This document shows, one piece after another, positions 1-3,000 of a stretch of 5,733 bases of DNA. The position numbers are program-made. The stretch is from a virus (lineage: Duplodnaviria; Heunggongvirae; Uroviricota; Caudoviricetes): IMG/VR virus record IMGVR_UViG_2698536574_000014; one strand, written 5' to 3'. Position 1 is the first letter of the stretch. Every line of letters starts with the position of its first letter.

Positions 1-3000
1 CAGACTTTCTATCTCAACGCCATACGCTGCATTTTTTGTAACATCCGTCAGCGTCAGCGCATTCAGTCCCAGTGTCAGACTGTCTTTTATAACCTGGAAT
101 GCCGGGCCAGCCACTCCATTCAGTTTCGGAGTAACCGTGGCACTGCCGGCGGTGAACACCAGCTCCAGCGTCTGCCAGTCGTTACCGTAATCGCCGAACT
201 CCCCCAGCTTCGTGTTTCCGGCTTTCCTGTGATGCATCAGATTCACTCTGCCGTCAGTGGTCTGAGTGAAGTACGACATCAGGAACGGATTACCGGTACC
301 CGTCATCGCCACACCATCAGGAACGGGAGCATCCGTATACAGATAAATCCCCAGCCCGAACTGATTGTTGGTCAGTGCGCCTGACAGGCGGAACTTACAG
401 GTCAGTCTGCCGCCCTGTGTCAGCAGGGTAATTGCGTCATCCACCGGATGCGTCAGGGACCAGGTTTTATTGCTCTGCTTGGTGATCTTAAATACACCAT
501 CTGACAACTGAATTCCGCCATCCTTAATGCTCCAGCCCTGCGCAGCAGCCTCTCCGGCTGCCGGCAGCAGGGAGATTGTGCGAACGGACGTATCTGCAGA
601 CGGACCCGATGGCGTGTTGCCGCCGGGCGAGGGTTTGATTTCCGGTGCCTTACCACTGATGAAGGCTGAGGTGCGCCCGGCTGCGTTCAGAATAGCGGTT
701 GCCAGACGATCCGGAATAATGCTCCTGCGCGCCCATGAACTGAAATGTGTCGGGCGGTTTGATGATACCTGGTTTCCATTCGTTCTCGATGCCGCACCGT
801 AATATCCTGATGCCGGAATATCCGGATCTTCTGCCGGCGCGTTAGTGGCGGTATTGACGCCGTTACCGTCTGTCATGAAGGGCACAAAATAAACGCCCTC
901 ACTCTCCCTGTTTTTGTACGCCCCGTAAATGGTGTTGTACTGGGTGCCGTAGGTATTTTTCCAGTAATACGTCGTGTCACCACAAATCCACGGCACATCT
1001 GCAGCACTGCCACCATGGCACTGCGCGTTAAACACGGAGAGGTCAGCACGAAACTGTGTCAGCATGGCTGTAAACAGCGCAGGTTGCTGTGCGTGGGTGG
1101 CGGCGCTCATGTCAAACTCTCCCTGCATCCAGCACACCGCCAGCAACACATTTTTCGGGTTCTTCTGTAATGCAGCTTTGGTGCGCGCAATCAGGTCCTG
1201 ATATAACGGTTTACCCACACCCCAGCGCGCCGAATCCTGGCTGGCCCCCGTGTCCGCACTGAATGTCCCCTCCGCGCCCTGGGTAAATGCCGAACCACCA
1301 CGACAGCATGGTACCAGCAGGATCCCCGCGTTATTCGGGATATACGGGAGCAGTTTTTTGGCAATATGTAACCCCTGGCCGACACAGCCGTACTGCCCTT
1401 TGCTCAGGTCTGCCTTCGGATGATTCAGCGTACTCATATCCTGCACATCATGCAGGCAGTGGTCGGCCGGAATAATATCGTTATATCTGCAGGCAGCCCC
1501 ACCCGGCGTAACTGTACTGCGGCGCGCCAGCTGTTTANNNNNNNNNNNNNNNNNNNNNNNNNNNNNNNNNNNNNNNNNNNNNNNNNNNNNNNCGATGACG
1601 TAGTACCAATCCGGCTCAGTTGCACCACTGACCACCACATCACCTTCTGCTGTAATCGCCTGCATCAGGGTATAAGGGGTTATGGCCACCGGACTACCAA
1701 ACGGCTGCCAGCCCTCTTTCAGTTTGTGTGTCAGCTTTTCCGCAAGGTCTGACGGCGACGCCGCCCTGACAACATCATAATGTTTAAATGTCATTATTCC
1801 TCCCGGCCGGGATAGTGTATTAAATCAGATATGGAGTGGGCTGTAGTCCGGAAGCCTGAATGACACACGGGGACTACAGCCCGAAATACGAAAAAGGCCG
1901 CGCAGTTGCGCAGCCTTATGAATCCTGGTTAAAATCCGCACGATAAAAATGACAATGCAAGTATCTCATGCTGTTGCCCGAACCCACTCGGGCTTTTTTT
2001 TGCATGTAAAAAGGCTCCTGCGATGAGGAGCCTGGATATATGCCTAATCTCTGTATACAGCATGATGCCGGGTGCCTCCCGGTGAGTTCGGCCTGGTGCC
2101 ACCAAACCCGCGTATTCTCGCTTACGATCATCAAAGAGATCATACCGTTCACCAGTCGCCCCTCCGCACAGGGGGATTCACCATGCAGAAATTTTCTAAC
2201 ACATCTATTATCAGACCGGCAACAACTGACTGAATTGAGATGTATTTAACATTTATGAATCTCCGCCTGCTATTTTCACTGAGCTATTCTGAGTCAACGA
2301 AAAATAACTTCGCTGAATCCCCCTCCATTATGACAGGCATTAGTTTTAATGGTTACAGTCATCCCCGTAATTTGCGCACTGAGAAGAAGAGACTGAAGAT
2401 TCCATCTGTTGGTAAATAATTCTTTATCACCCACTTTAACTGTAAAGGTATCGTCATCATTATATTTTGTATACTCCACCTTTCCAGTTACACAATCAGG
2501 CGTCGCCAGCGCACTTGCTGAAAAAAATGAAAGCGATGCAGCTATTAATAATGTTTTTTTCATTTTACCCCCTCAACTGCTAATAGTTCTGCGCATCAGA
2601 ATTGCCCCCAGAGTGGATGAATCCCACAATATTTTATTGTGCGTAATCCCACGGACTCTTCCATCTGCCGGACACATAGAAGGAAACTCATCAGATGCCA
2701 TTCTGGCAACTCGCGATGCATGATGATGACAATTCAGTATTAATGCCACGCTTCCCAGAATTGCATTAATGCTTCCAAAAGAAATTCTTCCTACACGAAC
2801 AGAGTCTTGTCCATGATAGTCAGGCAGGACGCTACTCAACCTTCCCCAGTTCAATGTAAGATCAACATCTTCAGCAGTCATTACATAAGAACGCCCACTG
2901 AGATCATCCAGTGTTGTACGAAATCCCCTCTGTATTTGCCGAAAACGTAAAGCTTCAGCTGTCACAGTAACAAACCGTAACATCGCTCTTGCCACAGACT

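Follow-up and report, generated by a model that had tools for sequence, protein, structure and literature searches.

The minus-strand open frame at positions 1-1794 of the window, that is, of the whole 5,733-nt stretch of DNA analysed here, is very probably the nanS-p gene of a lambdoid Stx1a prophage, encoding a 9-O-acetyl sialate esterase and with a scaffolding gap inside it. A nanS-p gene downstream of stx is already known, structurally characterised and routinely annotated, and the biological weight of the finding is small: a known gene, in a known place, with an ordinary assembly gap. What we add is that the gap is most likely 27 nt short and hides the catalytic serine block, that the stop codon lies just outside the window, that the gene is intact in the closed genome of E. 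coli EH2252, and that the allele in the window may be a collapsed paralog. The coordinates of all features are collected in Table 1.

Table 1. Features of the window, with strand and supporting evidence; the nanS-p name is a very probable assignment.
Feature	Position	Strand	Evidence
nanS-p CDS, incomplete	1..1794	-	open frame and ungapped alignment to annotated Stx1a-phage genes and EH2252 WP_064482890.1
C-terminal lectin-like jelly-roll domain, aa 421-607 visible	1..561	-	PDB 6YP6 and PF20350
DUF6645 core (PF20350)	91-423	-	Pfam, E 4e-18
NanS-like SGNH/SASA esterase domain, post-gap part, aa 96-379	685..1536	-	phmmer against PDB 3PT5
His359 codon, block-IV motif RPTH	745..747	-	3PT5 alignment; NanS His301 counterpart
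run of 55 N, scaffolding gap	1538..1592	.	relatives hold 82 nt between the same flanks, encoding V68-I95
esterase domain, pre-gap part, aa 59-67	1594-1620	-	
DUF1737 domain, N-terminal, aa 3-50	1645..1788	-	Pfam PF08410, E 1e-15
ribosome-binding site GGAGG	1799..1803	-	4 nt upstream of ATG 1794; read directly from sequence
stx1B	2294-2563	-	ORF; stxB1a in 100%-identical closed genomes
stx1A	2573-3520	-	ORF; stxA1a in 100%-identical closed genomes
Q	4027-4461	-	ORF; matching closed genomes
ninH	4454-4648	-	ORF; matching closed genomes
ninG	4645-5250	-	ORF; matching closed genomes
KilAC antirepressor gene	5250 to window edge	-	ORF; matching closed genomes

Translated from the ATG at 1794-1792, the minus strand stays open for 598 codons up to window position 1, without a single stop, whereas each of the remaining two minus-strand frames contains 28 stops. 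This places the frame far beyond chance; by simple arithmetic, 598 stop-free codons have a probability of (61/64)^598, or about 3e-13. The readable codons correspond to 1-67 and 96-607 of the 616-codon nanS-p gene, with codons 68-95 touched by the N run. The 3' end of the gene falls outside the window, 30 nt (nine codons and the stop) past position 1 in the copies carried by Stx1 prophages and 33 nt past it in a paralog from a non-Stx prophage described below. Because both determined parts (1-1537 and 1593-2300) align to intact reference genes with no gaps, the readable nanS-p sequence contains no frameshift or stop.

The predicted protein has three domains, of which the catalytic and C-terminal ones are covered by solved structures and the N-terminal DUF1737 by a cryo-EM report. 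E. coli NanS (PDB 3PT5) matches aa 59-379 (phmmer, E 4.9e-121). The Pfam SASA profile (PF03629) also matches, in the window only at profile positions 56-157 (E 3e-11); once the gap is filled from relatives, the match starts at profile position 4 (E 1e-12). At the C-terminus, the corresponding domain of phi24B NanS-p (PDB 6YP6) matches residues 421-613 (E 8.5e-30), the last nine residues of this jelly roll falling outside the window. An NCBIfam scan of the gap-filled protein and four neighbouring proteins gave no match at E <= 0.001. The original prediction had described a frame open for about 598 codons from ATG 1794 to the edge, with a DUF1737-like N-terminus and an SGNH-esterase-like body, and had assigned it to NanS-p, encoded after stxB. 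The translation, the HMM search it had proposed, and the place of the gene downstream of stx1B agree with these points, with DUF6645 found in addition to DUF1737 and SASA, and the toxin is Stx1a.

Among phage records, the Stx1a-converting phages YYZ-2008 and H-19B come closest, at 98.8-99.5% identity, and no record in the phage collection matched the window at 100%. In Stx1a phages with 99.2-99.5% DNA identity the gene is annotated as yjhS, as 9-O-acetyl-N-acetylneuraminic acid deacetylase or as SASA family carbohydrate esterase, and encodes 616 aa between stx1B and the holin gene. The closest closed genome is that of E. coli EH2252 (NZ_AP027176.1), in which the whole window is present with one mismatch in 5,678 determined bases. 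That mismatch, at position 705, changes Leu to Met, so that the two proteins agree at 578 of 579 determined residues. EH2252 has 82 nt at the place of the gap and an intact CDS of 616 aa (WP_064482890.1). The literature on EH2252 provided no usable serotype information.

NanS relies on the catalytic pair Ser19/His301, and its oxyanion hole contains Gln18 (PMC9063846). The 3PT5 alignment places the counterparts of the catalytic pair at Ser73 and His359, the numbering offset being 11 residues in both cases. His359 is readable in the window, while the codons of Ser73 and Gln72 fall within the N run. In all nine of the closely related copies that we aligned, these codons lie in a GQSN block, present as VLAGQSN. 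The block-IV motif RPTH (745-756, minus strand) recurs in every Stx1a-phage copy and every non-Stx copy compared. Among the Stx2a phages of one survey, a single prophage was reported to have RPTH, and the others RSSH or RASH (PMC10462455).

Whether the two sides of the gap belong to one prophage is a separate matter. Many Stx1a prophages match segment 1593-5733 at 100% identity. Segment 1-1537, in contrast, differs from typical Stx1a-phage copies at 12-18 sites, spread from 376 to 1510, and shows no mismatch to a paralogous nanS-p located on a non-Stx lambdoid prophage in the closed genomes of strains 03_3013 and 7_14_50A; this prophage carries paa, hokD, RusA, and tRNA-Ile/Arg. Segment 1-1537 may therefore lie outside the Stx1 prophage in the source strain. 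The frame could then be an assembly chimera, in which a unique contig of the Stx1 prophage (1593-5733) was scaffolded to a collapsed-repeat contig (1-1537) derived from one or more nanS-p copies of other lambdoid prophages in the same genome. Several further observations point in this direction. The two halves find their best matches at separate chromosomal places in the closed genomes of MBT-5, FWSEC0001, and 2003-3014, and genomes that carry nanS-p have a median of three copies and as many as 11. The gap itself lies inside a 136-nt tract that the Stx1-type and non-Stx (paa-prophage) paralogs share without any difference. From the contig ends at 1537 and 1593, the nearest discriminating sites (1510 and 1620, respectively) are each exactly 27 nt away. 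A gap within a shared tract of a multi-copy gene is the typical mark of a break induced by repeats; the left segment could accordingly be several paralogs collapsed into one consensus. Finally, the exact arrangement of the window beside stx1 was found in only one of 5,426 complete genomes.

Against a chimera, the closed genome of EH2252 has the same arrangement in contiguous form, with its single mismatch, and the junction state of the window is carried by 22 of the 65 fetched viral-contig paralogs with the same N-terminal type. The N-terminal region 1620-1656 distinguishes the Stx1-type copy from the paa-type paralog, and some non-Stx prophage copies have it too. A comparison of loci L001-L008 and L010-L129 over window positions 376-1510 further showed that a patch of nine SNPs (916-952) and the single SNPs at 376, 557, 859, 1180, 1372, and 1510 are reassorted among copies of differing N-terminal type. 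On sequence comparison, nanS-p alleles are freely reassorted recombination mosaics and, together with the paralogs that carry the junction state, this argues that the join is a natural configuration. The Stx1-linked nanS-p of EH2252 is a case in point: a patch spanning at least 1,135 nt is of the type of the non-Stx paralog and has Stx1-type sequence on either side, which suggests gene conversion between resident prophages.

On balance, we regard a chimeric frame as a tentative alternative that is unlikely, while deserving real weight. The question of a mis-join leaves the identity of the gene unaffected: if the frame were chimeric, the gene family would be unchanged, and the exact stx1-linked allele would not be given by the window. 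It does bear on typing from short-read EHEC drafts, in which NanS-p alleles are unreliable because the stx-adjacent allele may be a collapsed consensus of prophage paralogs.

Two side observations concern the ends of the contigs. The symmetric 27-nt distances at the gap look like the break of a de Bruijn graph with a 27-nt overlap. The left end of the window begins right after position 0, which is polymorphic among Stx1 phages (locus L001 has T there). Downstream, the first discriminating site is 25 nt past the end of the window; starting 25 nt beyond position 1, Stx1 prophages read ...TTATTATGCTGCCGG..., versus ...TTATGATGATGCCGG... in the non-Stx paralog.

Returning to nanS-p as a single gene, the stretch under the Ns can be reconstructed from relatives. 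Between the same flanks, the relatives read ...TACTGGCCGGGCAGTCCAATGCCATGGC... on the coding strand, so that codons 68-95 encode VLAGQSNAMAYGEGLPLPDSYDAPDPRI, which is SGNH block I and includes the nucleophile Ser73. The spacing between the flanks is 82 nt in each of the nine closely related copies aligned, including EH2252. We also searched collections of viral, metagenome, and genome contigs for the two flanks at a fixed spacing. At least 120 viral contigs and 13 metagenome contigs have a spacing of 82 nt, while a spacing of 55 nt occurs in none of the viral and none of the metagenome contigs. The genome-contig collection returned nothing at 55 nt and is uninformative, since the positive control at 82 nt was likewise without a match there. 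The 55 Ns are thus most likely a scaffolder's estimate, 27 nt (nine codons) short of the real length, in a gene of which each EHEC genome has several near-identical copies, and the gap in the source genome most likely holds 82 nt with the GQSN block. The frame seems to run through the Ns because 55 and 82 both leave a remainder of one when divided by three. That the gene is split by an assembly gap, as originally predicted, is evident from the N run; of the description given for it, the length of 55 Ns is exact and the equivalence to about 18 codons is not, as the 82 nt in relatives touch 28 codons. As a separate possibility, a deliberate mask of exact length is unlikely, as no natural 55-nt allele occurs in the collections that contain the flanks.

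The hidden stretch could nevertheless carry a real lesion (a 27-nt in-frame deletion should the 55 Ns be the true length, a frameshift, or an insertion) that makes the Stx1-linked NanS-p an esterase-dead protein or pseudogene. The run of Ns is indeed 27 nt, or nine codons, below the homologous stretch with the frame kept, and the catalytic Ser73 sits inside it. Yet no viral or metagenome contig has the 55-nt spacing, against at least 133 with 82 nt, and the nine closely related copies aligned all have 82 nt. A random gap estimate agrees modulo three one time in three, and scaffolders commonly write estimated gap sizes. We consider such a lesion highly improbable, and slightly more improbable still that the stretch is shorter or damaged in the manner of a 27-nt in-frame deletion beside or including the GQSN nucleophile. 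With such damage, the Stx1-linked NanS-p would retain the capsid-binding and lectin-like domains and lose esterase activity, giving a decoration-only variant. More generally, N runs in multi-copy prophage genes should not be taken for true lengths; here the run falls 27 nt short and covers the catalytic serine.

Judged by comparison with its relatives, nanS-p is most likely intact at 616 aa in the source strain, since the real gap stretch is most likely 82 nt that encode the GQSN nucleophile block. The caution in the original prediction, that intactness cannot be established from the window alone, was well placed, given the gap and a stop codon beyond the edge. That 1-1794 is open by chance alone, or is non-coding and misannotated, as its absence from the mechanical ORF list might suggest, has a negligible probability: the tool does not list ORFs that reach an end of the source, and the reading is refuted by matches to three Pfam domains, by homology to two PDB entries, and by orthologues annotated in relatives at 99-100% identity. 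The omission, correctly pointed out in the original prediction, illustrates that ORF lists that drop end-running ORFs can conceal the largest gene of a short scaffold.

Among known proteins, the NanS-p of Stx1a prophages (WP_064482890.1; BCI49065.1, "yjhS" of phage Stx1_14040; YP_002274178.1 of YYZ-2008) has the same genomic place, the same three domains, and a length of 616 aa; BCI49065.1 and YP_002274178.1 are about 98.5% identical to the window in determined residues. The copy in the window differs in being interrupted by the Ns and nine codons short at the edge and, relative to most Stx1a phages, in having SNP states of the non-Stx paralog in its catalytic and C-terminal part. The NanS-p proteins of the Stx2a phages 933W (z1466/L0105, NP_049502.1) and phi24B (vb_24B_21 / gp84), the members that have been studied by biochemistry and structure, have the same order of DUF1737, SASA/SGNH, and jelly-roll domains, and their genes are likewise located between stxB and the holin gene. 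They have the block-IV histidine in common with the window and the GQSN block I in common with the gap fill of the relatives. The window allele is only 56% identical to 933W NanS-p overall (56% in the N-terminal, 70% in the catalytic, and 36% in the C-terminal domain) and 29 aa shorter; its DUF1737 loop is shorter by three residues, and its first linker is shorter by 11 residues and is without the SISSP motif. In block IV, the window allele has RPTH in place of RASH/RSSH (PMC10462455). In phi24B gp84, linker motifs containing SSP have been proposed as processing sites, and these are absent in the window allele. Given the low C-terminal and N-terminal identity to 933W and the shorter linkers without SSP, binding specificity and processing may differ.

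Chromosomal NanS (YjhS, 3PT5), in contrast, matches the window only in the catalytic domain, aa 59-379. Because the 3PT5 chain (337 aa) aligns to this domain alone, NanS is without the DUF1737 and lectin-like domains. Its gene is part of the E. coli sialoregulon and is not prophage-borne (PMC7366253; PMC10462455).

The neighbourhood and domains suggest how the protein might act. In the late operon, nanS-p follows Q, stx1A, and stx1B. The NanS-p proteins of EDL933 and O104:H4 are reported to remove O-acetyl groups from Neu5,9Ac2 and mucin glycans and to support growth on Neu5,9Ac2 (review PMC8065619; PMC10462455); they are expressed late, and expression increases on prophage induction, along with stx (PMC8065619; PMC10462455). 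By analogy, the window allele would perform the same chemistry as these characterised proteins, its central SGNH type II esterase removing the 9-O-acetyl group from Neu5,9Ac2 and mucin sialoglycans by means of a Ser/His dyad (Ser73/His359). The Neu5Ac so released would then be open to catabolism. The C-terminal lectin-like jelly roll is thought to target carbohydrate, having been proposed as a carbohydrate-binding module (Franke 2020, as cited in PMC10462455 and PMC8065619).

The DUF1737 domain of phi24B gp84 is reported to form a hexameric decoration on the central capsid hexons, with Tyr42 as a "tooth" and proteolytic release of the other domains (bioRxiv 10.64898/2026.04.10.717836). The DUF1737 domain of the window has Y41 in a loop that is equivalent to the Tyr42 loop and three residues shorter than it, and may bind the capsid in a similar way, decorating it as in phi24B.

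The genes around nanS-p are those of a lambdoid late region, with Q, stx1A, and stx1B upstream on the same strand within the window; the holin gene downstream of nanS-p is visible only in the matching closed genomes. ARAGORN found no tRNA genes between Q and stx1A (3521-4026), in contrast to phage 933W, which has ileZ-argN-argO at the equivalent place, and to the non-Stx paralog prophage with its tRNA-Ile and tRNA-Arg.

The spacer between stx1B and nanS-p contains two Rfam matches. One is to STnc100 (2002-2215, minus strand, the strand of the late operon; 190.7 bits). The other, convergent with it, is to the AgvB-family anti-sRNAs (1941-2000, plus strand; 56.6 bits, only just over the gathering score of 56) and ends in a terminator-like hairpin (1976-1993) and a T run. 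The spacer matches fit a pattern described for lambdoid prophages, among them the Stx1 phage Sp15, in which a convergent sRNA pair occupies the moron site (PMC4104026). The target of the AgvB-family RNA may differ from that of AgvB, as its 5' variable region is without the CACAACA GcvB-target motif. The spacer also contains a 78-aa ORF (1916-2152, minus strand) that corresponds to YYZ_gp41, a "hypothetical protein" of phage YYZ-2008. It is probably a spurious protein call, because it overlaps the STnc100 match and terminator-like hairpins at 2033-2012 and 1917-1894. A further terminator-like hairpin (3981-3962, minus strand) lies directly downstream of Q.
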